Of a DNA stretch of 64,000 nt, positions 11,596 to 30,123 are shown one piece after another. The notes below the pieces were generated by a model that did no database searches, was not told the DNA's origin, and worked only from the letters and a program-made list of their open reading frames with translations. Each line of letters starts with the position of its first letter. Positions within the stretch are counted from its first letter, which is position 1. A program made the position numbers and the translations under genes. The DNA is from Bacteroidota bacterium (GTDB lineage Bacteria > Bacteroidota > Bacteroidia > Cytophagales > Microscillaceae). Where the stretch lies: assembly GCA_004293265.1 (NCBI GenBank), contig RDXZ01000022.1, positions 9,158 to 73,157 on the forward strand, given 5' to 3'.

Positions 11596-12246
11596 TTAAA
11601 TTTCTAAACAATTATTAATTTTATAAAAAACTGATGTACAAGTATTGTTAGCTACAATCGGCGATATTCCCCAAAAATCTATTCGTTTGAATCCTTTTTG
11701 TTGCATAAAATCTTTGGCAGGCTGATAATCCTCTCTTTCAGAGTTATCCAAAATAATGACTCCTTTTTCTGTCAAATAATCAACGGCAAACATTACACAA
11801 TCATTTCTTCTTCTTCCATCAACGACAACAATATCATATTTTGGTTTCTCAGCCATTGAAATTTCGTGTAAATAATCTTTATTTTCATTCAATTCACGAA
11901 AAACAACTTTTGTATTTTTGGGTAATTGTGGAGTTAATATTTCTATCCATTTTTGGTCATTTTCCACAGATTTTACAAAATTTACTTTTTGAGCGTACCA
12001 AATCGTAGAATTACCTGCTCCATATTCAAAAACGTTTAAATCTTTTGTCAATCGATTGTCTAAAAATTTTAAAAAACCATAATTATACCAAGCCAAAGGC
12101 TGTCCGTTTTTATCTATTGATTTTTTAGTTTGAAAACTTTTAAACCAACCATCATCTTTAAGACCGCTTTTAAGTTGTAATTGTACCATCCCTCCTATTC
12201 CTACGCCATTCAAAATTTTCCAAATTATTTTTTTTATAAATTTCAT
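11596..12246 (-). CDS. class I SAM-dependent methyltransferase
   Basis: Motif I VFEYGAGNST and post-I/II acidic residues (DIVVVDG). Confidence 0.6.
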   Translation of the reverse strand: MKFIKKIIWKILNGVGIGGMVQLQLKSGLKDDGWFKSFQTKKSIDKNGQPLAWYNYGFLKFLDNRLTKDLNVFEYGAGNSTIWYAQKVNFVKSVENDQKWIEILTPQLPKNTKVVFRELNENKDYLHEISMAEKPKYDIVVVDGRRRNDCVMFAVDYLTEKGVIILDNSEREDYQPAKDFMQQKGFKRIDFWGISPIVANNTCTSVFYKINNCLEI

Positions 12247-12339
12247 TTTTTTTTACTAATTTTTTTTGTGCAAAAGTAAGATAAAATATTTGAAGTTTAT
12301 AATTTTTTTTTTGGTTGAGGGAATAGATATTAAGAAATA

Positions 12340-13260
12340 TCATTGTTTGAGATATTTTTCAATTGTTGAATAAATTATTTTATGTTGATTTAAAACGTTG
12401 AAATGATGTGTGTTTTCTATTTTTGTTATTTGACAATCAATATTATTTTGTTTAAAATAAGAAATATTACTCATATTTTGAGATTCTGATGTAACAACAT
12501 AATCATTATTACCATTTGGAACTTCTATATCAAAAAAATTTAAAATCGTTTTAAAATTAGACATCATCGATTTTTGGGCAACAATTGAATGATATAAAAC
12601 ATCATTAGGATGTTGTTTTTGATTTAATTTTGTCAAAAAACTTTCTCTACCCGACTGAACCATTTGAGCAATTGCCAAACCTGAAATAGGTTTACCTAAC
12701 CAACTACTTAATTTTTCTATTAGTTTACTATCCGTTCCTCCCAATAATAAATTAGTTGCATAAATTGTATTTGCCCAAAAACTACCCTTATGTGGTGAGG
12801 CAATAGTTATCAAGGCACTAACTTTATGGTCATTTATATTTTCTGTTAAATATTGCCTTGCAATTAGTCCTCCCATACTATATCCAACCAACATAACTTT
12901 TTTTGTATTTGTTTTTTCAGTAACATAAGTAACAAAGTTCTTTAATTCTACAGAAAGTAAATCAATAGATGTAGTTGAATCACTGAATGAAACAGAAAAA
13001 TAGTCCATTTTTGAAAGTGTATCTCCTTTTGTCGAATTTATTTTTGAATCCTTATCAAAAACTAATTTTCCGCCATAAATCAAATTTTGTTTATCCGCTA
13101 AATAATCGGTAAACTTTTCCTGTTCCCACAAATCAGACTTATTGTTATAACCTGAAATAAGAATGATAGGAGTTTTTAGATTGCTTTTGGGGTAATCATC
13201 GACTGGGACTATGTGACAACCCTCTAAAAATATCAGCAAAATACAGTATATAAATCTCAT
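12340..13260 (-). CDS. lipoprotein alpha/beta-hydrolase (lipase/esterase, PGAP1-like); operon gene 13
   Basis: Lipobox FLEGC. Nucleophile elbow GYSMGG (GxSxG). ASPHKGS motif. 5-nt gap to the upstream gene. Confidence 0.7.
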   Translation of the reverse strand: MRFIYCILLIFLEGCHIVPVDDYPKSNLKTPIILISGYNNKSDLWEQEKFTDYLADKQNLIYGGKLVFDKDSKINSTKGDTLSKMDYFSVSFSDSTTSIDLLSVELKNFVTYVTEKTNTKKVMLVGYSMGGLIARQYLTENINDHKVSALITIASPHKGSFWANTIYATNLLLGGTDSKLIEKLSSWLGKPISGLAIAQMVQSGRESFLTKLNQKQHPNDVLYHSIVAQKSMMSNFKTILNFFDIEVPNGNNDYVVTSESQNMSNISYFKQNNIDCQITKIENTHHFNVLNQHKIIYSTIEKYLKQ

Positions 13261-13265
13261 TTTTT

Positions 13266-14108
13266 TTAATTTATTCTTGGTTTTAAAGTAATGATGGTTT
13301 TAGCTATAATTTCACCATCATATTTCATTATAAATAAATAATCGCCTTTTTTTATTTTTTTAGTCGATACAGGGATAATTTTCTTACCGTCTGAACTTTT
13401 GACAATATCAAAAGAAGTATTATTATATTTCACCTCATAATATATTTTTGAAGGCTCTATTATATGATTTGTTTCAAAAATTACTTTAAAGTGATCTATT
13501 GCATTTAATGTTTTAGGAATTGTTTTTCCATCTTTCTCAACACCTTGAATTGTAAAACTCTTAACAATAATCTTACCTTTAATTTTTTCGAGTTGCTTTT
13601 CCAATATTTCAATTTTTGCTAATAATTCAGTATTTTTATTTTTTAATTCTTGATATTGATTCTGTGTTTCTGAACTCTGGTCAGTGCTTTTTGGATTATT
13701 AGCCATAATTTTTACAATGGAATCATTGAGTATCTTTATTTTTTCTTCTTGTTTATTTTCTTGAAGTTTATGTTGTATTTTTAAAGCCAATGTTTCTTGC
13801 AAATTTTTATTACCATTTCTAATTGCCCCATCAAGTTCTAATTTTAAAGATTGTATTTTTTTTAATCTATCAATCAACAAGGTATCTTTTTCACTACTTT
13901 TTTTCTCCTCAACGCTTAGAATAGAGTCTACAACTACTATTTCTTTTTCTAATATTTTAAGTTTATCTTGTGTAGATACACCTTTAATCACATTATTATC
14001 ATTTGGTGTTTCATCTTTTTTACTACAAGATAAAAAGATAACATTTAGAAATATAATAATTACTAAAATAGTTACTAATTTTTGTGTTTTATTTTCGTTT
14101 TTCATCAA
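13266..14108 (-). CDS. lipoprotein with central coiled coil and C-terminal beta-rich domain; operon gene 12
   Basis: Lipobox FLSC. Heptad-rich E/K/L segment. 20-nt overlap with the upstream gene. Confidence 0.55.
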   Translation of the reverse strand: MMKNENKTQKLVTILVIIIFLNVIFLSCSKKDETPNDNNVIKGVSTQDKLKILEKEIVVVDSILSVEEKKSSEKDTLLIDRLKKIQSLKLELDGAIRNGNKNLQETLALKIQHKLQENKQEEKIKILNDSIVKIMANNPKSTDQSSETQNQYQELKNKNTELLAKIEILEKQLEKIKGKIIVKSFTIQGVEKDGKTIPKTLNAIDHFKVIFETNHIIEPSKIYYEVKYNNTSFDIVKSSDGKKIIPVSTKKIKKGDYLFIMKYDGEIIAKTIITLKPRIN

Positions 14109-15132
14109 TATAAATAAGTTTAATGTAGTTTTTGTTATCTTTTATAATTTTAGTTACTGAAATATAATATTTTTTGTAATATGGGATAACTGATATTGTA
14201 TTTAAGTATTCTTCAATTGTAATATCATTTTTTGGTTTGTTGTTATAAGTTAATTTAACAAATGTGTGACGGTTAGAAAATTTTTTTATAATTTCATTTC
14301 CTAACATTATTTTTTTAATTGTGTCATTTTGTTGAATGAAATTATTTATTTCATTTTCAATTAAATCTTTATCTACAATGGTACTTTTTACATCTGTTAC
14401 TTCTTTTTTAACAGTTTGTTTTTTATCTACATTAATCAAGAAATCTTTGATTATATTTTTTTTAGATTGGTTAGATTTTATTGTAAATATTTCATATTTT
14501 CTAACATTTGTTAGTTTTAAAAAAATTTCTAATTCTTTTTCTAAAAAATTATTTCTTACTAATGAAAGTAGAGCAATGTTTGAGTATTTATCCTTATTTT
14601 TCGATTTATTGTGAATATTACACGAGTCTAAATATCCATTTGCTAAGATAATAACTGAATATTTCTTATCCTTATCTATCTTATCCTCTATATTTTGATT
14701 AAAATACTCCCAAATATCACAAGAAGATATATTTAATGTATCATTTTGTTTTATATCCTCATAAACTTTATTGATATTCGTAATATATTCTTTTTCAAAC
14801 TTTATAAAACTATTTTTTCTTCTTTCTACCAAAGTATCTTTTAAATTTATTTTTATATTATACTCCAGTCCCTCTTTTATTTTTCTATTGTTTGAAACAA
14901 ATAAAAGTTCAAAACTATTCTTGGCACTAACAAATGTATTTTTTTTCACAATTTGTTTATATTCCTCAAATATATTTTTTATTATGTTTTTTTCATCTTC
15001 AATTTCAGTATCATCTTTTTGTTGAAAAGATGATAAATCAACCAAAATAATAAAATTATTATCATTTGTGCTGCAACTGCTAAAAATCACAACACAAAAG
15101 AAAAAATAAATCCATTTAAGTATTTTTTTCAT
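14089..15132 (-). CDS. lipoprotein, unknown function (possibly degenerate vWA-like); operon gene 11
   Basis: Lipobox FSSC. FIILVDLSSF resembles a degraded MIDAS strand. 17-nt overlap with the upstream gene. Confidence 0.5.
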   Translation of the reverse strand: MKKILKWIYFFFCVVIFSSCSTNDNNFIILVDLSSFQQKDDTEIEDEKNIIKNIFEEYKQIVKKNTFVSAKNSFELLFVSNNRKIKEGLEYNIKINLKDTLVERRKNSFIKFEKEYITNINKVYEDIKQNDTLNISSCDIWEYFNQNIEDKIDKDKKYSVIILANGYLDSCNIHNKSKNKDKYSNIALLSLVRNNFLEKELEIFLKLTNVRKYEIFTIKSNQSKKNIIKDFLINVDKKQTVKKEVTDVKSTIVDKDLIENEINNFIQQNDTIKKIMLGNEIIKKFSNRHTFVKLTYNNKPKNDITIEEYLNTISVIPYYKKYYISVTKIIKDNKNYIKLIYIDEKRK

Positions 15133-17482
15133 CTTCTATTGTTAAAATTATCTTTACCTTTATGTCATCAATGTAATCCAAATCAATACGTGATTCCTTT
15201 TTATATTCGTCTTGCATTTCTTTTAATCTCTTTTTTAATAAATTATTCTCTTCTTTTGGTAAAGAAAGAATACCTGTTTCTGACTTACCTCCAAAAAGAG
15301 TGCTTTTACAAGAAATTTTTATCACTTTTACACTTTCATCATTTATTTTGTTTATTTCAATTTTTGATATTTTTGAACCATTGATAAACTTATTCCATTC
15401 ATCTTTTTCAGTTTTAAAATCATCTTTTATATCTTGTAATGTAAAAAGATTATTGATTTGTGACCAGTGTCCTTTTTCAAACAATATTGGCAATGATCGT
15501 TTAAAAATATCCATTTCAATATTACTATATACCGTAGTATATTCTTCTTTCTTTTCATTTATAAAATTAAGAATACTTTGATAATCCTTTATTTCTCCTG
15601 AATCAACCCATTTTTTATAGTCATCGTGGTACTTTTTAAATTCAGTAGTAGATATACCAACGGGAAGCGAAGTAATAACAGGCAGAGGAGTGTGTACTAT
15701 TGTTTGATTATCCATATTTTCAATTGGCTCAAGTATATACTTACAACCCTCTATCATTACATGTGATATTCCAAAAAGTAACAACAACTCCAGAACAAAC
15801 AACAATATTAAAGCACCTTTAGGAATAGTCTTTGTAAATGATATAGGAATAATATAATCTTTTTTAAGTGCATCCACCGAAACTTTTAATGTAGGTTGTA
15901 TTGGATTATCACTCAATAATGTTCCGTTATACGTAAATTTTAGCTTTTGATTATTGGATAAAGTAGCATTTTCTTCTACTACCTTATTCATAGTGATACT
16001 ACCTTCTTTATTTGTAACTGGTAGATTATTACCATCTAATACTTGATACTCTATTTTTAAGTTAGGATAATAAAAATATTTATCATCAGAAGTATTTTGT
16101 TTCTCATATTTTGCATAATTACTAACAAATGATAAATGCACTTTAGATTCTGGAATGTTGTTTAATATATAATCGCTGGTCATATTATCCGAAGATGTAT
16201 GATAAAATTCTATTTTTTTATCAACTTTTAATGGTTGATTTAAAAAATTACTACTTATGTTATCTTTTATATCAATTACTTGAACATTATACCACTCATT
16301 TACACTTTTAAACATATTTATAATACCTGTTTCTATTTGATTAGATGAAATAAGATTAAATGTAATGTTATTACTTTTCGATATTGCATCAATTTTATTC
16401 CTTAAATTTGACATTGAATTTTTATCTAATCTTTTTCCTTCTTGCTGTTTTATTTTTTCATCTTGAATAAAATCACTTAAAATAGTAACAGAAATATGAC
16501 ATAAATTTTTATCCAATCCTTTTGTCATAATATCTATTTCATTTATTAGTTTTTGAAATGATGTATTCTTACCCTTTTTTATCTTAAATATATTAATTGT
16601 ATCAGAGATTTTTTTCATTATATCTGTCTTAGATGTGGTGTCAGTCTTTATATGTTGATATCTAAAAAAAATAGTTGTATCTTTATTAGTATTATCAAAA
16701 TTTTTGTAGTAACTTATTGTATCTGAAAAATAAATGACATTAAAATATGTTTTTTTATCTTTATTTTCTGGAAATAAATAGACTAATTTTTCTATTATAT
16801 TTTTATATTTTGCTGTAACTGAGTCAGGAATAGATTCGCTCTGGTCTATACAAAATAAATAAACATCTCCTGTTACTTTACTTTTTTTATTTATAAGATT
16901 GTTTATGTTTTCTTCCTTTTTATGATCAGATTGCAGAAAGTCAAAATGAGTTTTAAAGATAAAAGCATCTATATTTCCCATTTTTTCTATTTGTACTGTA
17001 TATAAAGACAATAAAAAAGTAATAGCAGAAATAATAAACAATGTAAATCTAACCCAATTTTTTCCCCAAAAGTGATACTTTATAAAATTTTCCCAAGATT
17101 TATCTTTTTTTATTTTTTTTATTTGTTCCCGAGAATAAATGATGGATAAAAGAGTAATTATTAGCACCGCTAAACCAATCAAAATACTAAATAAAATATA
17201 ATTTTGATTATTGATGTAATAAAAAGAATAAATTAAACCAGATAATGACAATAATGCTAATGGTGGAGATAATATTATTATCCAACGAGGAATACTACTA
17301 ATTTCTTGAGACTTTGACAATAAATAATATAATATTAGGCTTGATAATAATGCTAAAGCACATGAAAATATCAAAATTAATATAATTTGATACCCCAAAA
17401 AAGCAATGCTTAAAAATATGGCTAACAATAAAAGACATATTATGCCTTTAAGAAATCTATAGATTGTAATTTTTTGTTCCAT
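15116..17482 (-). CDS. polytopic membrane protein with vWA-like domain; operon gene 10
   Basis: About 5-6 N-terminal TM helices. YLFCIDQSESI carries a DxSxS MIDAS motif (nt 16832-16846). ILSDF strand. One further TM (ALILLFVLELLLLFGI), then a 220-aa C-terminal domain. Confidence 0.5.
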   Translation of the reverse strand: MEQKITIYRFLKGIICLLLLAIFLSIAFLGYQIILILIFSCALALLSSLILYYLLSKSQEISSIPRWIIILSPPLALLSLSGLIYSFYYINNQNYILFSILIGLAVLIITLLSIIYSREQIKKIKKDKSWENFIKYHFWGKNWVRFTLFIISAITFLLSLYTVQIEKMGNIDAFIFKTHFDFLQSDHKKEENINNLINKKSKVTGDVYLFCIDQSESIPDSVTAKYKNIIEKLVYLFPENKDKKTYFNVIYFSDTISYYKNFDNTNKDTTIFFRYQHIKTDTTSKTDIMKKISDTINIFKIKKGKNTSFQKLINEIDIMTKGLDKNLCHISVTILSDFIQDEKIKQQEGKRLDKNSMSNLRNKIDAISKSNNITFNLISSNQIETGIINMFKSVNEWYNVQVIDIKDNISSNFLNQPLKVDKKIEFYHTSSDNMTSDYILNNIPESKVHLSFVSNYAKYEKQNTSDDKYFYYPNLKIEYQVLDGNNLPVTNKEGSITMNKVVEENATLSNNQKLKFTYNGTLLSDNPIQPTLKVSVDALKKDYIIPISFTKTIPKGALILLFVLELLLLFGISHVMIEGCKYILEPIENMDNQTIVHTPLPVITSLPVGISTTEFKKYHDDYKKWVDSGEIKDYQSILNFINEKKEEYTTVYSNIEMDIFKRSLPILFEKGHWSQINNLFTLQDIKDDFKTEKDEWNKFINGSKISKIEINKINDESVKVIKISCKSTLFGGKSETGILSLPKEENNLLKKRLKEMQDEYKKESRIDLDYIDDIKVKIILTIEDEKNT

Positions 17483-17504
17483 TGTTGTATTGAAATTTTT
17501 TAAC

Positions 17505-18689
17505 TTATATAGTTTGTAATAATGCGCACAACTTAGTTCGCCATGTGCTAAAACTTTCTCCTACTGGCATATCAATAAAATTTCCTCTCAATAGCCAAAA
17601 TTTGTTTTGATCATCTTTAGACAACATACTTATAGATGAATTTATTTTGCCAAATAAATCAGGTATCTCTAAAAGTGTTGCTTCTAAAGCAATTTTATAC
17701 CATTCATTTTTTAGTTCTTCATATATTTTTACTGTTTGTATTTCTTCTCTCCATTCGCTTTTTAGTTCTTCATATTTTGCTTCTGGAATTTCCTCTTTCC
17801 ACTCATTTTTTGTGTACGTTTTTTCGGAAGACAAACCTATATCATTAGTATTATCATTACCTATAAAATAATCAACAATGTCTAAACCAATTTCTTTATA
17901 AAGATATGCAGGCATATTATTATTTTTTGAAAAAGGATTGACCATTATTTTTAATATTTTTACATCTTCTATTCCTTTAAAATACTTAAACATACTTGTA
18001 TCTTGTATTTTATTTTGGTTTAAGTTAATATTTTTTAATTTTTTTAATTTTTCAAGCACAGAAATATCTATAATTTGATTAGAATATAAATTAATATTTT
18101 CTAAGTTTAGGAATCTTTCTAATATTGTGATGTTTTTTATTTTATTATGTGACAAAGATAAATCTGTCAAGTTTTCAGTTCCTTCAATTGATTCTATATT
18201 TTCAATATCATTATGTTGTGCTAATAATATTTTTAAATCACAACTTACACTCAAGTTATGTATATGATTACGTGATATATTTAAAAAAACAATCTTCTTT
18301 TGTTTAGAAATTTTTATACTACGTATTTTATTACGAGAAACATCAAGATAAACTAAATCTTGCATTTTCTGTAAACAATTCATATTAGTAATTTGGTTAT
18401 TACTTACATCTAAATGGGTTAAGTTTTCCATATTTACAAATCCATCTGTGTTATTTATGTTGTTTCCAGAAATATTTAGTATTTTTAAATATGGTAAATT
18501 AAAACGAGGATTTGAAAAATTAATAATTCCTGCTTTCCCCTTTCCTCCAACATTCATTAAGTTTAAACCTATTATTTCTTGATTCTCCAAACAACTATAC
18601 GATAATGGAGTGTGTAACACTTCTCTTTCTGTTACCCTCTTTAATTTAACTGCCAATGAGTTTTCAATTATACTTATTTGATTTTCCAT
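17505..18689 (-). CDS. leucine-rich-repeat (LRR) protein, no signal peptide; operon gene 9
   Basis: About 9 consecutive 22-aa LxxLxLxxNxIxxI repeats (for example LTHLDVSNNQITNMNCLQKMQD). C-terminal EW(K/R)EEI tandem motif plus a helical domain. Confidence 0.8.
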   Translation of the reverse strand: MENQISIIENSLAVKLKRVTEREVLHTPLSYSCLENQEIIGLNLMNVGGKGKAGIINFSNPRFNLPYLKILNISGNNINNTDGFVNMENLTHLDVSNNQITNMNCLQKMQDLVYLDVSRNKIRSIKISKQKKIVFLNISRNHIHNLSVSCDLKILLAQHNDIENIESIEGTENLTDLSLSHNKIKNITILERFLNLENINLYSNQIIDISVLEKLKKLKNINLNQNKIQDTSMFKYFKGIEDVKILKIMVNPFSKNNNMPAYLYKEIGLDIVDYFIGNDNTNDIGLSSEKTYTKNEWKEEIPEAKYEELKSEWREEIQTVKIYEELKNEWYKIALEATLLEIPDLFGKINSSISMLSKDDQNKFWLLRGNFIDMPVGESFSTWRTKLCALLQTI

Positions 18690-18691
18690 TT

Positions 18692-19753
18692 TTAATCATC
18701 TTTTTTACGAATATTTTTCATTATTGTAGCAATATTTACCGCAAATCCTGCATTATCAATATCTGTTCTTTTAAAAGTTGCAATTCCTACTACCTCGCCA
18801 TTCATATTCATAACAGGACCTCCACTATTTCCTTGTGAAATAGCCGCATCTATTTGTATCAGCCCTTCGTCCTCATTACCCATTGAACGAATGGCAGAAA
18901 CTATTCCTTTAGTTATTGTTTGTTCAAGACCTCTTGGGCTTCCTATAACGAATATTTCTGAACCTGATTTAGGTGTTTTTTTTGCTAATTTTAAGTATGG
19001 AAATTTTTTATTTTTACTTTCTATTTCAAATTTCGCATAATCAAAAAAATTATTATATATCGATACTTTTTTAATTTTATAAAAAGCACCATCTTTCATC
19101 TTTATAAAGGCAATATCTGCTCCTTTTAGTACATGAAAATTAGTTAAACATTCATTGGGAGATATAAAAAAACCAGAACCTAAACTTGTTTCTCCTTCTT
19201 CATTGCGAGCATGTATTGTAAAAACTGATTCAGAGTTTTTTTCTACTAATTTTTCTAATGAATATTTTTTTTCGTTACTAACTTGATTTTCTAACTCATC
19301 ATTTTCTTTTTCATCAACCGAATCTTTGTCACTGATTAATAAACCATATTCACCATTTGAAAAACATTGCTCAAAAACATTTAAACTATCAAATAAATTT
19401 TTTTTATTTAGTTTTGATAATCCTTTTTTAAGAAGTTTTTTATTCAAAGACTCACCACTGTTTGCGTCTTTCAAATAAGCATTTATTTCATCAGTATTAT
19501 TGTTGATAGGTTGGTAACTTTTACTATCCTGAACAATCATTACATTTTTACCTATCCAATTAGACAACTGATTCGATATTTTGGCATCTTCTTCTATTCC
19601 TATCAAATTTACTTTTACACCGTTTTCGAGTTCAATTGTATTAGAATCTATAATTTTAATGATTTTTTGTGGCGAACTTTCTATATCAGTACTTTTACAA
19701 CTAAAAAAAAAGCTGCTAATCAATAAAATGATTGCAAACATTATATTTTTCAT
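18692..19753 (-). CDS. lipoprotein with C-terminal trypsin-like (S1/DegP-type) serine protease and N-terminal SNase-like OB region; operon gene 8
   Basis: Lipobox FFSC. Triad context TNFHVL (His), FDYAKF (Asp), GNSGGPV (Ser). The N-terminal IIDSNTIELENGVKVNLIGIE resembles the thermonuclease OB strand, which is weak evidence. Confidence 0.65.
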   Translation of the reverse strand: MKNIMFAIILLISSFFFSCKSTDIESSPQKIIKIIDSNTIELENGVKVNLIGIEEDAKISNQLSNWIGKNVMIVQDSKSYQPINNNTDEINAYLKDANSGESLNKKLLKKGLSKLNKKNLFDSLNVFEQCFSNGEYGLLISDKDSVDEKENDELENQVSNEKKYSLEKLVEKNSESVFTIHARNEEGETSLGSGFFISPNECLTNFHVLKGADIAFIKMKDGAFYKIKKVSIYNNFFDYAKFEIESKNKKFPYLKLAKKTPKSGSEIFVIGSPRGLEQTITKGIVSAIRSMGNEDEGLIQIDAAISQGNSGGPVMNMNGEVVGIATFKRTDIDNAGFAVNIATIMKNIRKKDD

Positions 19754-19770
19754 AATTATATTTATTTTAA

Positions 19771-20388
19771 TTAATTTACTTTTAAAGAACCTATTTTTGG
19801 AATAATTTGTATTAAAAAACGTTGATTTAATTTATCGTCTGAGTCTATTCTACCTACTCCTTCAGTACCATTGCCTGCTATTTGTATTTCACAAACTTCA
19901 CTTTGAAAATTTACATCATTTTTTTTCCACAAGTCATATAACGCTAAAGCTCGTCTGTAACTCAGGAGATAATTTTCGTAGTTATTGCCTGTTTTTGATG
20001 AACTTCCTTCAATAATTAATAGATACTTGATATTTTTATCTTTTTTACGAACTTCTTCTATCATTCTATTAATTTCTTTTCCTGCTCCGATAAGTTCTTC
20101 ATAATTATCTTCGGGTATTTTATCATCTCCCAACTTGAATTGAACTTGTTTCTTAAGCACATGTCTTTTATATTTTGGTTGAAATTCAAAATAGTCATCT
20201 TTTAATTTACTCAATGATGTTTCTATTTCTATTATTTTTTCATATTGTTTGACCATTACTTTTAACCGAGATTTTTCATTTTGAAACAATGTAAAACTCA
20301 ATACAAATAAAATCAACATAACTACAAATAAAACAGTCATCAAATCCACATAACTTGCCCAAAAAAAATCCCTTTTGCTTTGTTTCAT
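19771..20388 (-). CDS. MotB/ZorB-like stator subunit with OmpA-type peptidoglycan-binding domain; operon gene 7
   Basis: The N-terminal FWASYVDLMTVLFVVMLILFV matches the MotB TM helix, including the conserved Asp (D15, nt 20344-20346). The C-terminal IIEGSSSKTGNNYENYLLSYRRALALYDL is an OmpA-like core. Confidence 0.65.
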   Translation of the reverse strand: MKQSKRDFFWASYVDLMTVLFVVMLILFVLSFTLFQNEKSRLKVMVKQYEKIIEIETSLSKLKDDYFEFQPKYKRHVLKKQVQFKLGDDKIPEDNYEELIGAGKEINRMIEEVRKKDKNIKYLLIIEGSSSKTGNNYENYLLSYRRALALYDLWKKNDVNFQSEVCEIQIAGNGTEGVGRIDSDDKLNQRFLIQIIPKIGSLKVN

Positions 20389-20406
20389 CTTGTATAAATA
20401 TAAAAT

Positions 20407-21837
20407 TTACATTATAGAACGTAAAAATAACATAACATAACCAATAGCAATCAATAACAACCCAATGATAGATAATTCACTACCAAATGTTACCCAACTT
20501 TTAAATACTGATTTTTCTGGTTTATTTGATAAAGATTCTTTCAATGCTGATATATTTTCATTCAAGTTAATCAAATTATTTAACATTATAGTTTCATTTT
20601 CTTTTGATGCTCCTTTGCTTTGTTTTTTAATCATCAAATCAACAATGTACTTTGTTTCCTTTGTATCTTTTTGTATTTCATTTACTAAAACAACCAATGG
20701 TTTAACTGCTTCCATAAAGTCCAAATAATTTACTTGATTGTTTAGTTGATTATAAAATTTAGTTTTTTCTTCTGTTAAACTCTGAAAAAAAGCGTGCATT
20801 TCTCCTATAAAATGTTGTTCTTGATTGTTTATATTTTGTTTCCACTTATCAAAAAATTCATTCGTATTTTGTGAGGTAAGTTCTGTTAAACTTTCTAATT
20901 CAGCAATACGAGATTTTACAAATTTATCAACTGCATCATCTGCTTCTTTATAATGTTGGTCTATTCTATCATAAGCATCTGCAATTTTTTGAAAAACATC
21001 ACTTACTGATTCTATTTTTTCAAATATCACTAAATTTGCCCTTGCTATTTTTTTTACATCTATTTGATTCAAATGTTTTAAAAAATCAACTTGAGAATCT
21101 ATATTTTTAGTAATATTACCAATAGTACCTTTGAAAGATGATATATTTGTAGAAAATTCTTTATTAAATTTTTCTAAATTACCTGCTAAATTTGTCAAAG
21201 TTTCACCTATACCCACATTAGCAATTGGTAATAATTCTCGCCTCAAAAAATCATAATATTGTTCTTTATTATAATTCCTTTCTACCAAACATTTATTAAA
21301 AAATAAATTAGATATAACAGTTAAAAATAATCCAAAAAAACTGCCTATCATCGCTATCAATACACCAAACAAAAATGATGATATTGTACTTGAATTAATA
21401 GCATCTTGACTTTGATTAAACACAAATTGCAATAAACCTACAGAAACCCCTAAAAATGTAGCCATCAAACCTACATATAAAGGTATATTGATGTTATTTT
21501 GAATATTATCTTCTTGTGAGTTAGATTTTTTTTCTGCTATGTCTTGCAGAACCTGATAGTCGATACCACTGCCAGGTCTGCTTTTTAAGTAATTATTAGT
21601 TTGTACCAATATATCAGAAAACTCTTTACTCAGCGAACTACTTGTGATTTTAATATAACTAATATCATCAACCTCCTTATCATCAGGTTTGCCCACACGC
21701 AATACATTGCCTATATTATGTGGGTATAATTCTTTCAGTTTTTGTATTCTTTTTTTATTTTGAATAAAAAGACTTATTTGTATGATTAAAACTATTGCGA
21801 TGATAATAAACTCTATCAAATAAAGTATTTTTTCCAT
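20407..21837 (-). CDS. MotA/ExbB/ZorA-like ion-channel subunit with long coiled-coil tail; operon gene 6
   Basis: TM1 at the N-terminus. The paired helices YVGLMATFLGVSVGLLQF and FLFGVLIAMIGSFFGLFLTVISNLFFN (nt 21298-21489) resemble the MotA_ExbB core. Then about 250 aa of predicted coiled coil and a terminal TM helix. Confidence 0.5.
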   Translation of the reverse strand: MEKILYLIEFIIIAIVLIIQISLFIQNKKRIQKLKELYPHNIGNVLRVGKPDDKEVDDISYIKITSSSLSKEFSDILVQTNNYLKSRPGSGIDYQVLQDIAEKKSNSQEDNIQNNINIPLYVGLMATFLGVSVGLLQFVFNQSQDAINSSTISSFLFGVLIAMIGSFFGLFLTVISNLFFNKCLVERNYNKEQYYDFLRRELLPIANVGIGETLTNLAGNLEKFNKEFSTNISSFKGTIGNITKNIDSQVDFLKHLNQIDVKKIARANLVIFEKIESVSDVFQKIADAYDRIDQHYKEADDAVDKFVKSRIAELESLTELTSQNTNEFFDKWKQNINNQEQHFIGEMHAFFQSLTEEKTKFYNQLNNQVNYLDFMEAVKPLVVLVNEIQKDTKETKYIVDLMIKKQSKGASKENETIMLNNLINLNENISALKESLSNKPEKSVFKSWVTFGSELSIIGLLLIAIGYVMLFLRSIM

Positions 21838-21849
21838 AATAAACCTCGT

Positions 21850-23256
21850 TTATTTGTAATTAATGCGTGCTTTTTTTTCTAATTTCCAAACATTTCCTTG
21901 TTTTCTAATCTTCCCTGCTGATGTTGTATATATTTTAGGGTCAGTTGTTTCGACTTTTCCTGTTATTTCACAAGTGTGTTCAAGAAGCGTAGTGATACCA
22001 TGAATAACATCTTTGTATTGATCATTCATAGTTTTGATAGTAAATGAGGCTTCTCCATCATTTTCATTTCTCATTATTACTTCAAACAACGTATTCTCAT
22101 CTTCTGCATCATATAATTCAAAATACATATCAGAACGAAAATAACGAGCATATTTTATAATTGTTTTTGCTGTTGGTTGTGATAATGCTGTTGGTTCACC
22201 GTTATTAGAAAGTAATAATCCTTGTGAAGACCCTATTTTAGATTCCAACGCATTGATTTTTTTTTTCAATTCTTCATTTTGTTCATTCAATTGATTATTT
22301 TTTGATTCTACTCCATCAATTTTAAATTTCAAAGAATCATTTTCTGTTTTCAATTTATCAAGTTGTTTTTGTAGTTCTTTTTCTTTTTCAGTATATTCTG
22401 TTTTCTCTTCATTCTTTTTTTCCATAAAAAAAAATATTTTTATTTTTTTTATTATACCTAACCTAACCAAAAGAATCAATACCAGTACAATTACTGCAAA
22501 TGAGCCAATTACAATCAAAACAATTATTTTCCAACTATTCCAGCTATTTTCTGGATCGTTTTTGTCTTCACCTAATATTATTTTTTCTTGTTCTTTGAGT
22601 TTGGTTATATCATTTAGGAATGGTGTAATTGATTTTAAGTAGTTTTTCAATAATTCATCATTGATTACTTTTGCATATCCTTCTATATCCTTCAAGTAAT
22701 CGGTTTTTTTAGTATGATTTTTTAAAAGGGTGTCATTCTTTTTATTCGCATACTTAATTATTGCTTTTTTAATTATACTATCTGATTTTGGATTTTTTAT
22801 ACCACCACCTTTTGTATTTATGGTACTTAGATATTCATTAAATTTTTTTCTCAATAATGATGAATCTACTTTTTTTTTATCGTATAATAAACTTTGATCA
22901 GCAAAAAGTATCATTTTATCTGTCAAAGTTTTTACTCCATCTATGTCATCTGGTTTTATACCAGTTTTATTATTTATTTGGTCCATTCTAAATCTATAAG
23001 TTGAGTCTATAAACGCAGACGAAGTTAATAAATACAGAACTTTTTGATTAACAATACCCTTTATATTATTTATACCATTTGCCGTATCACTGATTTTTTC
23101 TATTTGACTAATATAATTTTTGTTTGTTGCTGAATCTATTTTCAAACATTCAATAATACTAATTTTAAGTAATTCAAGAGAATGGTTTTTAGTTTGCCCT
23201 ATTATATTGGTTGAGCAAAAAAAGAGTAATATAGCTGATAGAATATATTTTTTCAT
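21850..23256 (-). CDS. bitopic membrane protein: exported N-domain, TM, coiled coil, C-terminal globular domain; operon gene 5
   Basis: Signal peptide MKKYILSAILLFFCSTNIIGQ (ATG at 23256). TM helix IIVLIVIGSFAVIVLVLILLV. Heptad-rich segment KELQKQLDKLKTENDSLKFKIDGVESKNNQLNEQNEELKKKINALESK. Confidence 0.55.
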   Translation of the reverse strand: MKKYILSAILLFFCSTNIIGQTKNHSLELLKISIIECLKIDSATNKNYISQIEKISDTANGINNIKGIVNQKVLYLLTSSAFIDSTYRFRMDQINNKTGIKPDDIDGVKTLTDKMILFADQSLLYDKKKVDSSLLRKKFNEYLSTINTKGGGIKNPKSDSIIKKAIIKYANKKNDTLLKNHTKKTDYLKDIEGYAKVINDELLKNYLKSITPFLNDITKLKEQEKIILGEDKNDPENSWNSWKIIVLIVIGSFAVIVLVLILLVRLGIIKKIKIFFFMEKKNEEKTEYTEKEKELQKQLDKLKTENDSLKFKIDGVESKNNQLNEQNEELKKKINALESKIGSSQGLLLSNNGEPTALSQPTAKTIIKYARYFRSDMYFELYDAEDENTLFEVIMRNENDGEASFTIKTMNDQYKDVIHGITTLLEHTCEITGKVETTDPKIYTTSAGKIRKQGNVWKLEKKARINYK

Positions 23257-23313
23257 AATGTTATAAATTGAAAGATAAAACAATGAGTTGTTAAACCCAT
23301 TGTTTCATTGTTA

Positions 23314-26300
23314 TTAGTTGCCGTATTTATTATAAATTTCTTTTCCAACTTGATACAATTTTTCTTTTATTTCATAAAAAAACAAAGTTTCAGAAATTTC
23401 TTCATTTTTATTGGTATCATTTTGGTTCATAAGATGCAATCCTTTTTTGATTCCATCTTCTTTATTTTGTGCCCACCATAGCATTATATCTTGTAAATTT
23501 GTTTGTATTCCCAAATTAGATAAATGCTTTGTGATAGATGAAGTAGTAAATAACATATTGATAAAATCAACTACATTTTCAGCAACACTATTTTTTACAT
23601 CAGCAGTAATATCTTTATAATCTTTGATGTTATCTTGATTGATAAGATTATTTTTATGATTTTTTTGTCCTAACCAACAAATAGATTCATTAGATTGTGA
23701 TGACTTCATATACCCACTGTACAAAATTCCTACAGGTGTTTGAGGAGTATATTGATATAAACAGCATCCTTTTGCTGTAGCTTGTTTCGGGTCTTTTATA
23801 TTTACCAACTGAAAATTAGTAGGTGCTTCTTTACCACTTACTTTTGAGAGTATAGCCTTTGTAATTTCAGTAATTGTACCCATCAAAGGATCTAATATTT
23901 GAATGTATTTACTACCCATTCCTGTGAAAACAAAATATCTTGGTATGTTTATATTTTTAAATTTGATAATTTCTGCTAAATGATAAACAATAGAAGCATA
24001 ATGTATCAATAGTTGCACTCGTAAATGTTTACAATCCCCAAGAAACGATAAAAAACCTAATGCTTCGTCATATTTAAAACATAATGATATGATTTCATTT
24101 GATTTCAGTGTTTTTTTTGAAAAATCATCAAGTACATTTTTTGCACGTTTAAACGCATCATCTTCTCTATTTTGTGCGTCTATATATTTTTTAAATGATT
24201 GTAAAAATGGATTATCTTTTGAAGGTTGTTCATTGAATCCCTCTCCCCACAGTGTATCTCCCGCAAATCTGAAAGATGTATTGAAAGTATTTCCATTTGT
24301 AAAGTTAAAAAAAACATCAGTAGTACCGCCTCCAATGTCTATATTACAAAGATCCTCATTTGGAACTAATTCATTAGCCTGTAAATAACGGTAAGGTGCA
24401 TACGCCTCTGATAAGCAATAAGTATCTCTTTGTGATTTGAATATTTGTCTAAAATTATCATTCCACAACGAACAGAGTTTATCTAAATCTATTCTTTGCA
24501 TGCTCAAAGGTGCAGACCAGTAAATATTTGTATTGTTAATATTGCCACCTATCAAAGCTACTTTGTTTCTAATTAACCGAAGTAATTCTTCTAAATAAAC
24601 GCTTGTATTTTGTTTTTCATTACCCGTCGTCCATTTAAGATTAAACTCGGTTTTATTACCACCTGTTATTACTTCACCATCTCTCAAATAAGGATTAAAA
24701 AGTATGTTGATATTACTCAATAGTAATTTAGGGGTTGAAGACCTTGTATTAACCAAAATAGAAGTTCGCATTGGTAAATCACCGTCATTGATAATAGAAG
24801 GCACAAATTGTGCTTGTGGTATATTTCCAAAAGGTGCCAAGTATAGCCCACCAGCATCGTTCCACATATCTTTGGCTTCATATTTTTCTTTTACATCTTG
24901 TTTTGACTTGTCTGGTTCGTTCAAGGTAATCATTTGCATATCTTTTTCTTCTATTGTAAAAGTAGATATATGTTTCTCACTTCCTTTTGTATAAGCTATA
25001 TAGGTGTTAGTAGTACCAAAATCGACTCCAAATTGATATGATTCATATCCATTCTTACACTCCACCCACTTTGGTATGATTAAGTTCCTAATTACTTTAT
25101 CATTTTCTTCATTTGGATAAGTAACTTCTATATAATCCCAAGGTGTATTATTAACTTGAAAAAATGTAGTATTTTGACCACTATCTGATTGTTTAAAGTC
25201 TCTCTTATCCTCAAAAACACTTTTATGCTCTCCATAGGGTTTTTTATCTTTATCCTCTACTCTTGGCAAAGAATTTTGTTTGGGAATACTTTTTTGGTTT
25301 GTTGATGTTTTGTCATTTTGTTGGTAATAGAAATCCAATTTAAAATCATTTTGTAGATCTTTTTGTTTTTCTATAAACATTACTTTATAAAAATCATTGT
25401 ATTCATCTTCATCTTTTCCCATCATTTTATAAAAAGGGAAAATACCAATATTTATATTTATCTTGATAATTGTTCCATAGTCATTTTTTGAGGGTTTATA
25501 ATAATAATATTTTTCAAAAATTATTTTACCCTTTTTAATAGGAATGGTTAATGAAACTCTAACAGATTCTTTATCTTTTATACTAAAAGTAAGCATTGAC
25601 TCTATATCTTTAGGTTCAAAGTAATCAAAGAATTTTTTTTTAAGAGGACACAAATAATTAAATTTTTCGAATTTTTTAAGACTATTTTCGACACCCGTTT
25701 CATATTCTACCTTGCCTATATGAAAGCGCGAGGTTTGGACATTATAAGGTAATGCCAATAAATGAGATTCTAAAAAATCGTTTATTGTTAAATATGGATA
25801 TTTTTCGGCAACAATAGGTAAAATTCTATCAGATAAAGGAGTATTTTCATCAAGTAAGGGAACTTCATACGTAGATTTCCAATCACTTTGTGTATATTTC
25901 ATACCACCTGAACTAAATCCTGCCATTAAAACCAAAGGAGGATTGTCTATATCAGGGATTAATACATTACTATTATGTTTAATTACAAAATCACTTTTTT
26001 GTTTGACATCAACGCTACCTTTTCTTCTTGTTGGAATTTCTATATTATTATAAACCACCACTGATTCCCTATTATCATACCTAAGAATTTCATAATCGTT
26101 TTCATATAAATTGTTAGCATGGTATGTTTCCTTATCCCTTTTTAGGTTTTGCATTTTTGTACGAAAATCTCTGTTTCCGTCATTTATAAATTTAGGTTGA
26201 TTTTCAATGTATTTATATAAATTTTTACATTTTGTAGTTAATGAATTATGTGCTAAAAATATTTTATACATAAACTCTTGAAATTCTTGTTCTCTGGCGT

Positions 26301-26874
26301 ACAAGGGTTGTGCTTGATTCTCATCAAAATAGTGATGACCTGTAGTATTGGCAATTTTTAATTGACTTATATCGGCAGTAGGAAAAAGTAATGTAAAAGG
26401 TGATGTACCTCCTATTACTCTATTTTCAAATAAAAACATATAAATATTTGATTCATTTGCCATTATTTTTCCTGCACTTGTATATAATTCTAAAGTTTCT
26501 GCTAATAACCTTTGGGCTTCATTTCCAGAATTTTTCAATTTATCGAGTTGCTGGTCTTTGTTCCATTTAGTGATTTTAAGACCTTGGTCTTTCAATGTAT
26601 GATAATTAAAAACTATTTCCATTAAATCCAAACATTTGGAAACCAATCTATGATGTATAGAGTTTCCAGTAGGATTTTCAGCAACCATACCAAAAACAGA
26701 GTCGTACAAATGCATCTGTGCAAAAGGACTTGGCACTGATGTAACAACTTTTTTAATATCATTTTCGTTATTATCTTTAAATTTGGTTTGAATTGTATCC
26801 ATTCCTATTTTTTCAAAAGGACTCCAGTACTCTCCTGTGCTGTCTATTGAATAATTAATTAAAATTTTAGCCAT
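23314..26874 (-). CDS. 1186-aa protein with C-terminal Hsp70/actin-like (ASKHA) ATPase domain and 600-aa unknown N-terminal region; operon gene 4
   Basis: Phosphate-1 motif GVDFGTTNT (nt 24997-25029). Phosphate-2 motif IDIGGGTTD (nt 24316-24342). Adenosine-like FVFTGMGSKY. No P-loop seen. Confidence 0.6.
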   Translation of the reverse strand: MAKILINYSIDSTGEYWSPFEKIGMDTIQTKFKDNNENDIKKVVTSVPSPFAQMHLYDSVFGMVAENPTGNSIHHRLVSKCLDLMEIVFNYHTLKDQGLKITKWNKDQQLDKLKNSGNEAQRLLAETLELYTSAGKIMANESNIYMFLFENRVIGGTSPFTLLFPTADISQLKIANTTGHHYFDENQAQPLYAREQEFQEFMYKIFLAHNSLTTKCKNLYKYIENQPKFINDGNRDFRTKMQNLKRDKETYHANNLYENDYEILRYDNRESVVVYNNIEIPTRRKGSVDVKQKSDFVIKHNSNVLIPDIDNPPLVLMAGFSSGGMKYTQSDWKSTYEVPLLDENTPLSDRILPIVAEKYPYLTINDFLESHLLALPYNVQTSRFHIGKVEYETGVENSLKKFEKFNYLCPLKKKFFDYFEPKDIESMLTFSIKDKESVRVSLTIPIKKGKIIFEKYYYYKPSKNDYGTIIKININIGIFPFYKMMGKDEDEYNDFYKVMFIEKQKDLQNDFKLDFYYQQNDKTSTNQKSIPKQNSLPRVEDKDKKPYGEHKSVFEDKRDFKQSDSGQNTTFFQVNNTPWDYIEVTYPNEENDKVIRNLIIPKWVECKNGYESYQFGVDFGTTNTYIAYTKGSEKHISTFTIEEKDMQMITLNEPDKSKQDVKEKYEAKDMWNDAGGLYLAPFGNIPQAQFVPSIINDGDLPMRTSILVNTRSSTPKLLLSNINILFNPYLRDGEVITGGNKTEFNLKWTTGNEKQNTSVYLEELLRLIRNKVALIGGNINNTNIYWSAPLSMQRIDLDKLCSLWNDNFRQIFKSQRDTYCLSEAYAPYRYLQANELVPNEDLCNIDIGGGTTDVFFNFTNGNTFNTSFRFAGDTLWGEGFNEQPSKDNPFLQSFKKYIDAQNREDDAFKRAKNVLDDFSKKTLKSNEIISLCFKYDEALGFLSFLGDCKHLRVQLLIHYASIVYHLAEIIKFKNINIPRYFVFTGMGSKYIQILDPLMGTITEITKAILSKVSGKEAPTNFQLVNIKDPKQATAKGCCLYQYTPQTPVGILYSGYMKSSQSNESICWLGQKNHKNNLINQDNIKDYKDITADVKNSVAENVVDFINMLFTTSSITKHLSNLGIQTNLQDIMLWWAQNKEDGIKKGLHLMNQNDTNKNEEISETLFFYEIKEKLYQVGKEIYNKYGN

Positions 26875-28405: not shown

Positions 28406-28807
28406 TTAAAAAGGAATTTTACTTGCGTGATTTTTTCCCAAATTTTTTAATGTTATTGACACTAAAAAATATAAGATACTTGAATAAAAAATATTGATTA
28501 TAACCAAATACCATGCATAAGTATTATAATCTACCGCATTAGCATTACGTATATAATAATTATTTGCAAAAATTATTACAACTAAAGCAGATATGATAAT
28601 ATTTAATAATAGGATAAAAAACCACCAAATAATGGTAGCATACTTTGTAGTCGAAAGTTTATTTAAAACTAAGTAATATACAGTAGGTAGTAGTAAACTA
28701 CTTAAAATGTTTATATATGCTACAAACACAAAAAACTTTTTAAAATCTCTACCATATTTGTAAGAACCTATAAAAACCTCATAAAGAGATATAAAAAAAT
28801 CATTCAT
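28406..28807 (-). CDS. small polytopic membrane protein (3-4 TM); operon gene 2
   Basis: 133 aa, almost entirely hydrophobic helices. 19-20 nt gaps to both neighbours. Confidence 0.55.
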   Translation of the reverse strand: MNDFFISLYEVFIGSYKYGRDFKKFFVFVAYINILSSLLLPTVYYLVLNKLSTTKYATIIWWFFILLLNIIISALVVIIFANNYYIRNANAVDYNTYAWYLVIINIFYSSILYFLVSITLKNLGKNHASKIPF

Positions 28808-28827: not shown

Positions 28828-30123
28828 TTAGAAATAGTACTCATTTTGTTTATATGCTTCTAAAATTCCTTCTATCAGTTCTTTAAAAGCAAAAGTTTTT
28901 TTATTGTTTTCTTTCTTGTTAATATCTTTATCATTTTCAGTAGACCATTTTTCATACCAAGTAGAATTTTTTTTCTTTAGTTTTATCGACAACGTATTTT
29001 TTGTTGATATTGCATTATTGTTTAGTTCTAATGTTATAAAATGTGTATATGGTTTTAAATCATTTTGTTGTTCAGATGAAATAGTTTTAAAAAAATCTGA
29101 TTGTTTTTTCACAATGACTGATTCTTTTTTTACAAGATTATCTACCTCTATATTTTCTTTTAAATATTTTTCATCTTGGACATTTATTGGATAAGATTTT
29201 AAATCTAATCCAATTGTAAACTTAATCGTTTCACCCAATGGTAATTTCTCTATATGTGTGGTATCTACATAATCCCAACCGCCAGCCCTACCTTCAGAAG
29301 ATAAAATAGTATGTTTTGGTGCATTATATTGCCAACCAATATGTAATTCTTCCCTTGCTTTAAATTTTTTATCATTAATAATATAATTTGTAAATTTTGG
29401 CATTAAACTTTTTCTGCCAATAACCCATATATAAAAAGGACGTAAATTTGTTAGACAACAAGATTCTGGTTGATTCGAATGATTAAAATATGTTCCGTCA
29501 AACTTTGATAAAAAAGCATAAACAGAGATTCCAAAGTCTTTTTGATATTTTGCAAATGCTCCTGTAACCTTTCCTTTTAATCCATCACTATCTTGATTAG
29601 CATACGGTTCTTTTTTTATCTTATCTGTGGGATAAGACATTATACTTTCAGTAAAAAATATATTTATAGATGATGTGTCTTTATTTTTAAAAATATTTTC
29701 AAAAATAGTGTGAATTGGAGTATCTTTTCCATTTCTAAATCCCCAATCCTCGTCCATTCCATCAGAAAACTCACCAACTAAATCTCCTGCTGATTTGATT
29801 TTATTTTTATAAGATTCAACTTTACCACCATCTAAAAGATAAATTTTCAGTTTTTCATCAAATGAAGTATCTGAAAAATAACTTAAGAAAGTTCTAACTT
29901 TATTTTTAAAGTTATCATCTTCTTCTCCTCTTTTTGGTCCGTTTGTCAAATAACCACCCATACTTGCTGATTTGTCAAAAAAAATATTAATTTTTAAGTT
30001 ATTATTTGAATTTATTTTAGAAGCAACACCCATTTTTAATTCTAATTGATGATTGGTGCAACCAAGAGAGAGTATCAAAAAGAGAAAAACAATCAAATTT
30101 CGTATGTATATTCTTAATATCAT
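28828..30123 (-). CDS. vWA-domain lipoprotein; operon gene 1
   Basis: Lipobox LSLGC after ATG at 30123 (the track TTG start at 30159 is less likely). INIFFDKSASMGGY is a DxSxS MIDAS motif (nt 29962-29976). Confidence 0.6.
   Translation of the reverse strand: MILRIYIRNLIVFLFLILSLGCTNHQLELKMGVASKINSNNNLKINIFFDKSASMGGYLTNGPKRGEEDDNFKNKVRTFLSYFSDTSFDEKLKIYLLDGGKVESYKNKIKSAGDLVGEFSDGMDEDWGFRNGKDTPIHTIFENIFKNKDTSSINIFFTESIMSYPTDKIKKEPYANQDSDGLKGKVTGAFAKYQKDFGISVYAFLSKFDGTYFNHSNQPESCCLTNLRPFYIWVIGRKSLMPKFTNYIINDKKFKAREELHIGWQYNAPKHTILSSEGRAGGWDYVDTTHIEKLPLGETIKFTIGLDLKSYPINVQDEKYLKENIEVDNLVKKESVIVKKQSDFFKTISSEQQNDLKPYTHFITLELNNNAISTKNTLSIKLKKKNSTWYEKWSTENDKDINKKENNKKTFAFKELIEGILEAYKQNEYYF

Follow-up and report, generated by a model that had tools for sequence, protein, structure and literature searches.

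A predicted ZorAB-like stator pair in a conserved Bacteroidota gene cassette with tubulin-like and MreB-like proteins

Introduction

What does a ZorAB-like stator pair do when none of the usual Zorya partners is encoded beside it? The question is raised by two adjacent genes, here called F and G, in a window of 64,000 nucleotides from contig RDXZ01000022.1 (positions 9,158 to 73,157 of the forward strand; assembly GCA_004293265.1, Bacteroidota, Microscillaceae). An earlier note on this DNA had read them, from the sequence alone, as a MotA-like channel protein with a long tail and a MotB-like peptidoglycan anchor. The Zorya anti-phage systems were reportedly described by Doron and colleagues in 2018, and to our knowledge Zorya is the only case in which a flagellar-stator-like motor serves as an infection sensor. 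Here we report that F and G are not a free-standing stator but the membrane module of a conserved, colinear cassette of seven genes, A to G. The cassette is uncharacterised and widespread, and joins a Zorya-type motor to predicted members of both prokaryotic cytoskeletal NTPase superfamilies. Coordinates are those of the window, the whole stretch analysed, unless they follow an L-number, which denotes an individual locus of the comparison.

Results

The stator genes close a conserved seven-gene cassette

F and G are genes six and seven of a tight run on the minus strand (30159-19771) and are separated by 18 nt. The run consists of the following genes.

28828..30159, minus strand: gene A, the first cassette gene, 443 aa, one N-terminal transmembrane (TM) or signal segment (residues 12-30)
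28406..28807, minus strand: gene B, 133 aa, small membrane protein with three predicted TM helices
26917..28386, minus strand: gene C, 489 aa, predicted tubulin/FtsZ-like GTPase of the divergent Tubulin_2 or FtsZ-like type
23314..26874, minus strand: gene D, 1186 aa, soluble, C-terminal half a predicted MreB/Hsp70-like (ASKHA) ATPase
21850..23283, minus strand: gene E, 477 aa, bitopic membrane protein
20407..21837, minus strand: gene F, 476 aa, ZorA-like subunit
19771..20388, minus strand: gene G, 205 aa, ZorB-like subunit

The open reading frames (ORFs) of F and G were found again on the minus strand where they had first been placed, and a deposited protein from a Bacteroidetes metagenome-assembled genome (MAG), EAZ85_03070, is identical to F. 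The DNA around the pair has a G+C content of about 26%; given the length of the two ORFs in such DNA and their hundreds of homologues, they cannot be regarded as chance frames.

Gene order was compared in 85 fetched loci that carry F relatives, and was judged wherever a locus was long enough. In every such locus the genes follow one another as A-B-C-D-E-F-G on a single strand. F is present in all 85 loci, G and D in 83 each, C in 81, A in 79 and E in 73; for gene B the count depends on the query, 58 loci with the protein of the window and 76 with one from Hymenobacter. Five of the seven products (A, B, E, F and G) are membrane proteins. The earlier note had expected the stator to be coupled to components other than those of Zorya, without seeing which; the probable partners are the five conserved genes directly upstream. 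It was right that the Zorya partners are missing, as a PADLOC scan of 20 window ORFs detected none of ZorC, ZorD, ZorE, ZorF or ZorG.

A word-indexed search with the single F sequence returned only 19 relatives. This appearance of rarity was dispelled by a genome scan, which yielded 300 tblastn-confirmed relatives among GTDB species representatives, and by an exhaustive search of 1.84 billion proteins with the 215-aa motor domain of F, which gave 915 cluster representatives at E<=1e-3, 672 of them also at E<=1e-10. The family is coherent and has a typical length of its own, the greater part of the representatives being 430-620 aa long. In L091 (12159-14707) the public gene calls miss F and give small ORFs on the opposite strand instead, while a hidden Markov model (HMM) search recovers an intact F (1.2e-57) and G (1.8e-52) there. 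Surveys of called proteins therefore undercount the F family.

Gene G encodes a ZorB homologue

By sequence comparison G is clearly a homologue of ZorB, and the assignment is a strong one. The protein is laid out as an N-terminal TM helix (residues 16-34), a helical linker and an OmpA-like domain predicted to bind peptidoglycan. The earlier reading of a MotB-type helix with a conserved Asp and an OmpA-like C-terminus stands. Asp15 lies within the motif FFWASYVDLMT, and the pattern FW.SY.DLMT, including Asp15, is invariant across 82 G homologues; the Pfam OmpA model matches at 2.1e-5, with 25.2 bits just below its cut-off of 27.2. A profile of the G family aligns FFWASYVDLMT with FWISYADLMT of EcZorB, in which Asp26 is the essential proton-carrying residue (PMC11946911).

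Model and structure-database searches agree with this picture. G of the window matches the PADLOC ZorB1 model at 8.8e-12, and all 20 of 20 diverse family members match three ZorB1 models, the best at 1.4e-17. When the family profile was compared with PDB sequences, the significant matches were ZorB chains only, namely Shewanella 8vvn_B (2e-11, end to end), EcZorB 8qyd_F (1e-6) and 8vvi_A (9.6e-6), and no MotB, PomB, ExbD or TolR chain was found. The peptidoglycan site of EcZorB comprises Y151, N152, L155 and R159. Since the OmpA motif LSYxRAL is conserved in the G family, with L142 and R146 of G kept, the equivalents of L155 and R159 are retained.

Gene F encodes a divergent ZorA-like subunit

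The F protein consists of a first TM helix (TM1, residues 7-25), a membrane-proximal cytoplasmic domain with a beta-hairpin, a TM2-TM3 channel hairpin (about 118-175) and an amphipathic helical tail of about 260 aa. The hairpin carries two family-invariant motifs, PxYxGLxGTxxG and GVxIAMxxSxxGLxLT. The tail (about 185-445) is poor in Pro (3) and Gly (7) over its 260 residues and has a hydrophobic periodicity of 3.5-3.67 residues (z = 7.7 against shuffled sequences), strongest between residues 200 and 375. A helix pair, a long heptad-rich segment and a terminal TM helix had all been described in the earlier note, and all are present; the last of these, at 454-472, does not hold for the family, being found in 5 of 86 members, and is thus lineage-specific.

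The PADLOC ZorA2 model matches F at 2.4e-5, and ZorA chains are the sole matches of F among PDB sequences that are not coiled-coil proteins. T127 and S166 of F align with Thr147 and Ser184 of EcZorA, respectively, and within the F family T127 is invariant and S166 conserved in at least 90% of members. In EcZorA, Thr147 on TM2 and Ser184 on TM3 contact Asp26 of ZorB (PMC11946911). None of the NCBIfam models for MotA, ExbB, TolQ, MotB, ExbD and TolR matches F or G at E<=0.1. The matches of the G profile to ZorB chains and of F to ZorA chains in the PDB thus uphold the proposed ZorAB-type homology over a MotAB, ExbBD or TolQR type.

Structure predictions were monomer AlphaFold2 models, compared with the PDB by Foldseek. 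The model of F has a predicted local distance difference test score (pLDDT) of 75-88 over residues 1-210, and its helix runs unbroken from TM3 (149-233). Its 50 best Foldseek matches are exclusively ExbB, ZorA, TolQ and MotA structures (probability 0.93-1.00), in keeping with the MotA-type fold for which a predicted structure had been proposed as the check. The cytoplasmic domain of the model also shows a small beta-hairpin of the kind noted for Zorya-type A subunits (PMC12505986).

Profile searches with MotA_ExbB, OmpA, ZorA and ZorB models had been suggested as a further check. They gave strong ZorB matches, and F stayed below every curated cut-off (100 bits for NCBIfam ZorA_2 and 22.9 for Pfam MotA_ExbB; ZorB1 is set at 400 bits). 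Because the curated values for ZorA and ZorB are not reached, F and G are best described as divergent relatives and not as annotated Zorya members. The combined sequence and model evidence is consistent with F being a divergent relative of the ZorA/ExbB-fold motors, with a ZorA assignment weaker than that of G to ZorB.

The partner proteins include predicted tubulin-like and MreB-like NTPases

Gene C is predicted to encode a GTPase of the tubulin/FtsZ superfamily. The Pfam models Tubulin (1.4e-5, 25.9 against 33 bits) and Tubulin_2 (8e-4, 19.2 against 27 bits) both match it below their cut-offs, and the motifs GxGGTG and SSIFGGTGA(A/S)GFP are invariant in its family. There are at least 3818 homologues, many of which carry precomputed PF13809 or PF00091 assignments or the name FtsZ/tubulin family protein. 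PDB searches with the single sequences of C and D gave nothing useful, and the best match of a C profile to the PDB had an E-value of 0.24.

Gene D, from its motifs and its model, is a predicted giant MreB-like ATPase. The motifs DFGTTNT, DIGGGTTD and GxGS are invariant, and the AlphaFold2 model has a pLDDT of 82.7 and a predicted TM-score of 0.76. In Foldseek the C-terminal half resembles MreB most, the ten best matches being MreB without exception (E 9e-9 to 6e-8, TM-score on the target 0.50-0.56), followed by the nucleotide-binding domain of DnaK/Hsp70. The N-terminal part of about 600 aa is without an identified fold.

Among the other partners, E consists of a signal peptide and an external domain of about 230 aa, then a TM helix (253-271), a coiled coil in the cytoplasm and a domain at the C-terminus. 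The window protein matches those in the E position of L006 (2e-8) and L007 (1e-6), and the latter belongs to one E-slot family common to 73 of the 85 loci. A weak NCBIfam match of E to FlbB was rejected as an artefact of the TM helix plus coiled coil. Gene A has no match in Pfam, PADLOC or NCBIfam. A plasmid-partition role for C and D, of the TubZ or ParM kind, was also considered and rejected, as the cassette lies on the chromosome in hundreds of species and is bound up with five membrane proteins.

A protease often follows the cassette

18692..19753, minus strand: gene H, 353-aa lipoprotein protease with an N-terminal domain and a trypsin/HtrA-like domain, a frequent eighth gene

Pfam Trypsin_2 matches H at 7.9e-26, and H homologues stand directly after G in L007, L012 and L090. 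In L002, L003, L005 and L109 the same position is taken by a retropepsin-like lipoprotein protease. Residues 7-129 of H and 11-132 of the L002 retropepsin (L002 12404-13264) form a homologous N-terminal domain of about 125 aa (27% identity, E 5e-11), the catalytic domain being swapped between the trypsin and retropepsin types. The shared N-terminal domain with its exchanged catalytic part makes the protease look like part of the system. By eye, the pattern of this common domain resembles staphylococcal-nuclease or OB folds.

In the window the run continues beyond H (11596..18689, minus strand) with six ORFs that are linked to the cassette by position only:

17505-18689, minus strand: leucine-rich repeat protein (LRR_4, 5e-19)
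15116-17482, minus strand: multi-TM vWA protein (VWA 2.1e-4, 22.0 bits against a cut-off of 23.8)
14089-15132, minus strand: lipoprotein-like ORF
13266-14108, minus strand: lipoprotein-like ORF
12340-13260, minus strand: PGAP1/lipase-like alpha/beta hydrolase (PGAP1 3.6e-12)
11596-12246, minus strand: 216-aa ORF

Gaps and overlaps are at most 22 nt, save for 93 nt before the last gene. The leucine-rich repeat, vWA, lipoprotein-like and hydrolase genes are absent after G in the other 85 loci, and the window genes after H are therefore not considered core parts.

Distribution and other genomic contexts

Most of the 85 loci are from chromosomes of Hymenobacteraceae. The best 80 of the 300 relatives are almost all from this family (Hymenobacter, Rufibacter, Pontibacter and Adhaeribacter), with Rhodocytophaga and an Ignavibacteriales MAG among the remainder. 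The cassette is also carried by Chitinophaga and Catalinimonas. Outside Hymenobacteraceae its occurrence is sporadic. A C-D-(E)-F-G version lies on at least 8 IMG/VR contigs, predicted to be viral or prophage DNA or integrative and conjugative elements (ICEs), and the cassette is also found on Bacteroidales mobile elements, in L095 and L091 with the layout A-B-C-D-F-G. In L005 it adjoins a type I restriction-modification system and GmrSD. In L092, an A-B-C-D locus near GmrSD has a weak F-like match only and no G. C and D without F and G occur on mobilisable cyanobacterial plasmids, with coiled-coil and TM2-domain partners, and also in Prevotella.

The F-G pair is found in another setting too. 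On two independent mobile elements, genes for a DarT-domain protein and a DUF6939/NADAR-like protein stand directly before F and G, without A to E:

L086 9842-13964: DarT, DUF6939/NADAR, F and G, on an integrative element of Parabacteroides distasonis (NZ_OY725823.1)
L094 5750-9934: DarT, DUF6939/NADAR, F and G, on an IMG/VR contig

One IMG/VR contig that bears the cassette shares toprim (2e-77) and AAA (7e-107) genes with the DarT element. We regard the DarT/NADAR-F-G unit as a candidate for a ZorAB-like system whose effector is a DNA ADP-ribosyltransferase. Since the same family stands behind the DarT/NADAR pair, F-G looks like an exchangeable sensor or energiser module.

Three further loci or groups of loci deserve mention. 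In the IMG/VR loci L098 (15555-16964), L099 and L101, a single F gene is followed by a tandem pair of ZorB-like G paralogues, which may form a heterodimeric B subunit. L015 (JBPBPH010000059.1) is a 268-kb contig of a MAG labelled Janthinobacterium lividum, with a cassette layout nearly identical to that of Hymenobacter polaris (L016); it is probably a binning contaminant and not a proteobacterial occurrence. In Chitinophaga qingshengii (L109 7118-7771 and 19095-20930) genes for extracytoplasmic function (ECF) sigma factors bracket the cassette, with genes for a FecR-like anti-sigma factor and a TonB-dependent receptor downstream, which may point to regulation by envelope signals in this genome.

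Other genes of the window

A CHAT protease domain (2e-29) forms the C-terminus of an 861-aa protein (32559-35144, minus strand) that is encoded 2.4 kb upstream of the cassette. Beside its gene lies that of a 351-aa protein without a Pfam or PADLOC match (35216-36271, minus strand); the two may form a separate conflict-type module. On the plus strand, a 1240-aa ORF (38634-42356) has a primase-like N-terminus (RTasDnaG-like, 4e-8), and 42569-44173 encodes a 534-aa subtilase (PADLOC subtilase 5e-30, IetS 4.5e-14). These two genes hint that a mobile element, or another gene for defence, may lie close to the cassette. A single frame of at least 3165 codons (54504-63998, plus strand) begins with a signal-like segment and runs off the window end; its product is probably a secreted or surface protein. 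The last 10 kb (G+C 0.37-0.40) look poor in ORFs because of this one giant ORF and not because of rRNA; an Rfam scan of the whole window gave no match, there or elsewhere.

Discussion

A proposed mechanism

We consider it very probable that F and G form a ZorAB-family stator that works with A to E. By sequence, the two would belong, as divergent members, to the ZorA/ZorB branch within the superfamily of 5:2 ion-driven motors. As to the cassette as a whole, we lean towards a new type of Zorya-like system, serving defence or the response to envelope stress, that couples a rotary sensor anchored in the envelope to cytoskeleton-type NTPases; on whether its biological role is defence in particular we are evenly divided.

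In such a system, by analogy with Zorya, a G dimer would be anchored to peptidoglycan by its OmpA-like domains, hold Asp15 in the membrane and sit inside an F pentamer (5:2). T127 and S166 in TM2 and TM3 of F would provide the proton path, and proton flow would turn F together with its helical tail of about 260 residues. A disturbance of the envelope, for example phage attack, would engage the G anchor and start the motor, and the tail of F, possibly with E, would relay this to C and D. At the membrane C and D would then assemble or remodel in a nucleotide-dependent manner, in place of the nuclease action of ZorC and ZorD, with the periplasmic protease as an accessory.

Evidence against and rival explanations

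A number of observations weigh against a Zorya-like system of this kind. The sole tie of F and G to C and D is gene order. F scores 21.9 bits with the NCBIfam ZorA_2 model (cut-off 100) and 17.4 bits (3.8e-3) with Pfam MotA_ExbB (cut-off 22.9), and ZorA HMMs match only about 5-10 of 20 F family members at E<=1e-3. In G, the best NCBIfam match is ZorB1, at 21.7 bits (E 1.1e-4) with a cut-off of 400, and the equivalents of the peptidoglycan-site residues Y151 and N152 are not conserved. Foldseek with the F model does not separate ZorA from ExbB or TolQ, and the tail is modelled with low confidence (pLDDT below 50). The tail is also about half as long as that of EcZorA (about 260 against about 507 aa), and in the lineage of the window it ends in a TM helix, a poor fit to a free cytoplasmic tip. 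Finally, in Hymenobacteraceae the cassette is present in essentially every listed species genome. A downstream flank gene is common to 34 loci, the flanks are partly syntenic in this family, and in Hymenobacter G is followed by genes of housekeeping character (for an S9 peptidase and a PUA-SAM methyltransferase, and carotenoid genes). With such flanks, partial synteny and presence in the listed species, the Hymenobacteraceae cassette looks like a cellular machine inherited vertically and not like a patchy immune system.

The points from Hymenobacteraceae at the same time favour the rival that survives best, a housekeeping machine of the Bacteroidota for envelope or membrane remodelling, in which F-G would be a constitutive energiser driven by the proton motive force, as TolQR is for Tol-Pal, without an immune role. 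F-G would power filaments of the tubulin- and actin-like proteins, which would serve to form vesicles, to maintain the envelope or to shape the cell. We hold this to be rather unlikely. The preponderance of membrane proteins among the products (five of seven) speaks for such a machine. So does the precedent of the FtsZl1 operons with vWA and OmpA genes, which are predicted membrane remodellers, a vWA protein being encoded in the operon of the window too. Against it, the same cassette travels as cargo on predicted prophage or ICE contigs, its partial C-D version on mobilisable cyanobacterial plasmids, restriction-modification and GmrSD genes adjoin it, and its distribution outside Hymenobacteraceae is sporadic. 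Moreover, F and G are paired, without the rest of the cassette, with a DarT/NADAR toxin module, both have immune proteins as their nearest characterised relatives, and interchangeable proteases in the last slot are typical of conflict systems.

It is very improbable that F-G works as a MotAB, ExbBD or TolQR-type stator of the ordinary kind, in motility or in transport that depends on TonB or TolA, with the other genes as no more than its neighbours. The weak Pfam MotA_ExbB match and the ExbB and TolQ structures among the best Foldseek matches speak for it. Against it, the NCBIfam models of such stators fail where ZorA and ZorB models match, no MotB, ExbD or TolR chain turns up in the PDB with the G profile, no TonB, TolA, flagellar or Gld gene is present among 30 window proteins scanned, such stators lack the tail of F, and the A-E gene order is invariant in the 85 loci.

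Significance

A second and a third ZorAB-like family, one with tubulin- and actin-type NTPases and one with DarT/NADAR, would show that the sensor is modular, and a comparison of the families would make it possible to study, in natural examples, how the rotation of the tail is read out. The result also yields a concrete hypothesis, open to testing, on the function of the FtsZ-like (Tubulin_2) proteins, which have lacked one since 2010. A giant MreB-like protein family (D), fixed in all sampled Hymenobacteraceae, is identified as well, and if the cassette is housekeeping it would represent a new cytoskeletal machine of the Bacteroidota envelope driven by the proton motive force. We offer only tentatively the broader idea that ZorAB-type rotary motors are general envelope sensors with interchangeable cytoplasmic effectors, of which the cassette would be an unrecognised immune or stress class with a cytoskeletal effector, and a sister system would control DarT.

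Comparison with known systems

With ExbB-ExbD, TolQ-TolR and MotA-MotB, the F-G pair shares the fold of the A subunit (Foldseek probability about 1.0) and the conserved TM Asp of the B subunit. It differs from them in the long tail of F and in the OmpA-like domain of G, which matches ZorB and not MotB. The toxin-antitoxin defence modules DarTG and DarT1-NADAR are echoed by the DarT and NADAR-like genes before F-G in L086 and L094, a second and independent setting of F-G; such genes are absent from the window.

The likeness to Zorya is closer. The order of the genes is A then B, as in F-G. ZorB likewise has an N-terminal TM helix with an essential Asp, followed by a helix and an OmpA-like domain, and no MotB plug was detected in G. 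F shares with ZorA its three TM helices, the beta-hairpin of the cytoplasmic domain, a Thr in TM2 and a Ser in TM3 where ZorA touches the Asp, and a long helical tail at the C-terminus. The partners set the two apart. In Zorya types I-III, ZorAB is encoded with ZorC and ZorD, with ZorE, or with ZorF and ZorG (Hu et al. 2024, PMC11946911; Mariano et al. 2025, PMC11890865). In the cassette their place is taken by a predicted tubulin-like GTPase and a predicted giant ATPase of MreB-like type, together with three further membrane proteins and, in many loci, a protease. A further difference is that the cassette is vertically fixed in one bacterial family.

Our literature search found no description of the A-G cassette, nor of a link between FtsZl1 operons and Zorya. 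Operons of FtsZl1 (Tubulin_2) with vWA, OmpA-like, GTPase and kinase genes were described in 2010 by Makarova and Koonin, who proposed a role in membrane remodelling (PMC2875224), and a vWA gene is present in the operon of the window, as in most FtsZl1 operons. The supplementary table of that work lists Deinococcus operons that encode, in order, a protein of 420-480 aa, one of about 110 aa, FtsZl1, a MotA-TolQ-ExbB protein, an OmpA protein and a repeat protein (PMC2875224). The connection to ZorAB was never drawn there, as the paper pre-dates Zorya and gives the MotA and OmpA genes only in the supplement.

These Deinococcus operons (DR_0540-DR_0534 and Deide_2p00760-2p00810) resemble the cassette in that a protein of about 420-480 aa and a membrane protein of about 110-135 aa precede the tubulin-superfamily protein, and in that a MotA-like protein with a helical tail and then an OmpA/MotB-like protein of about 200 aa come after it. 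The MotA-like protein of D. deserti matches ZorA1 at 1.6e-7 and aligns with the F profile in hhalign (85%, E 5.9e-6), and the OmpA protein of this operon matches ZorB models and has the Asp in FSDLM. The differences are considerable. FtsZl1 proteins, with tubulin-like, coiled-coil and helical domains, are about 1000-1070 aa long, and C only 489 aa; hhalign aligns C with DdFtsZl1 at the GGTG loop only (probability below 1%) and gives no support for close relatedness between G and the Deinococcus OmpA protein; and the Deinococcus operon lacks a D-like actin-fold protein. On the strength of the hhalign results for C and G we do not claim that the two are orthologous. The MotA-like genes are related and the logic recurs: a predicted tubulin-like gene beside a ZorAB-like pair is found across phyla.

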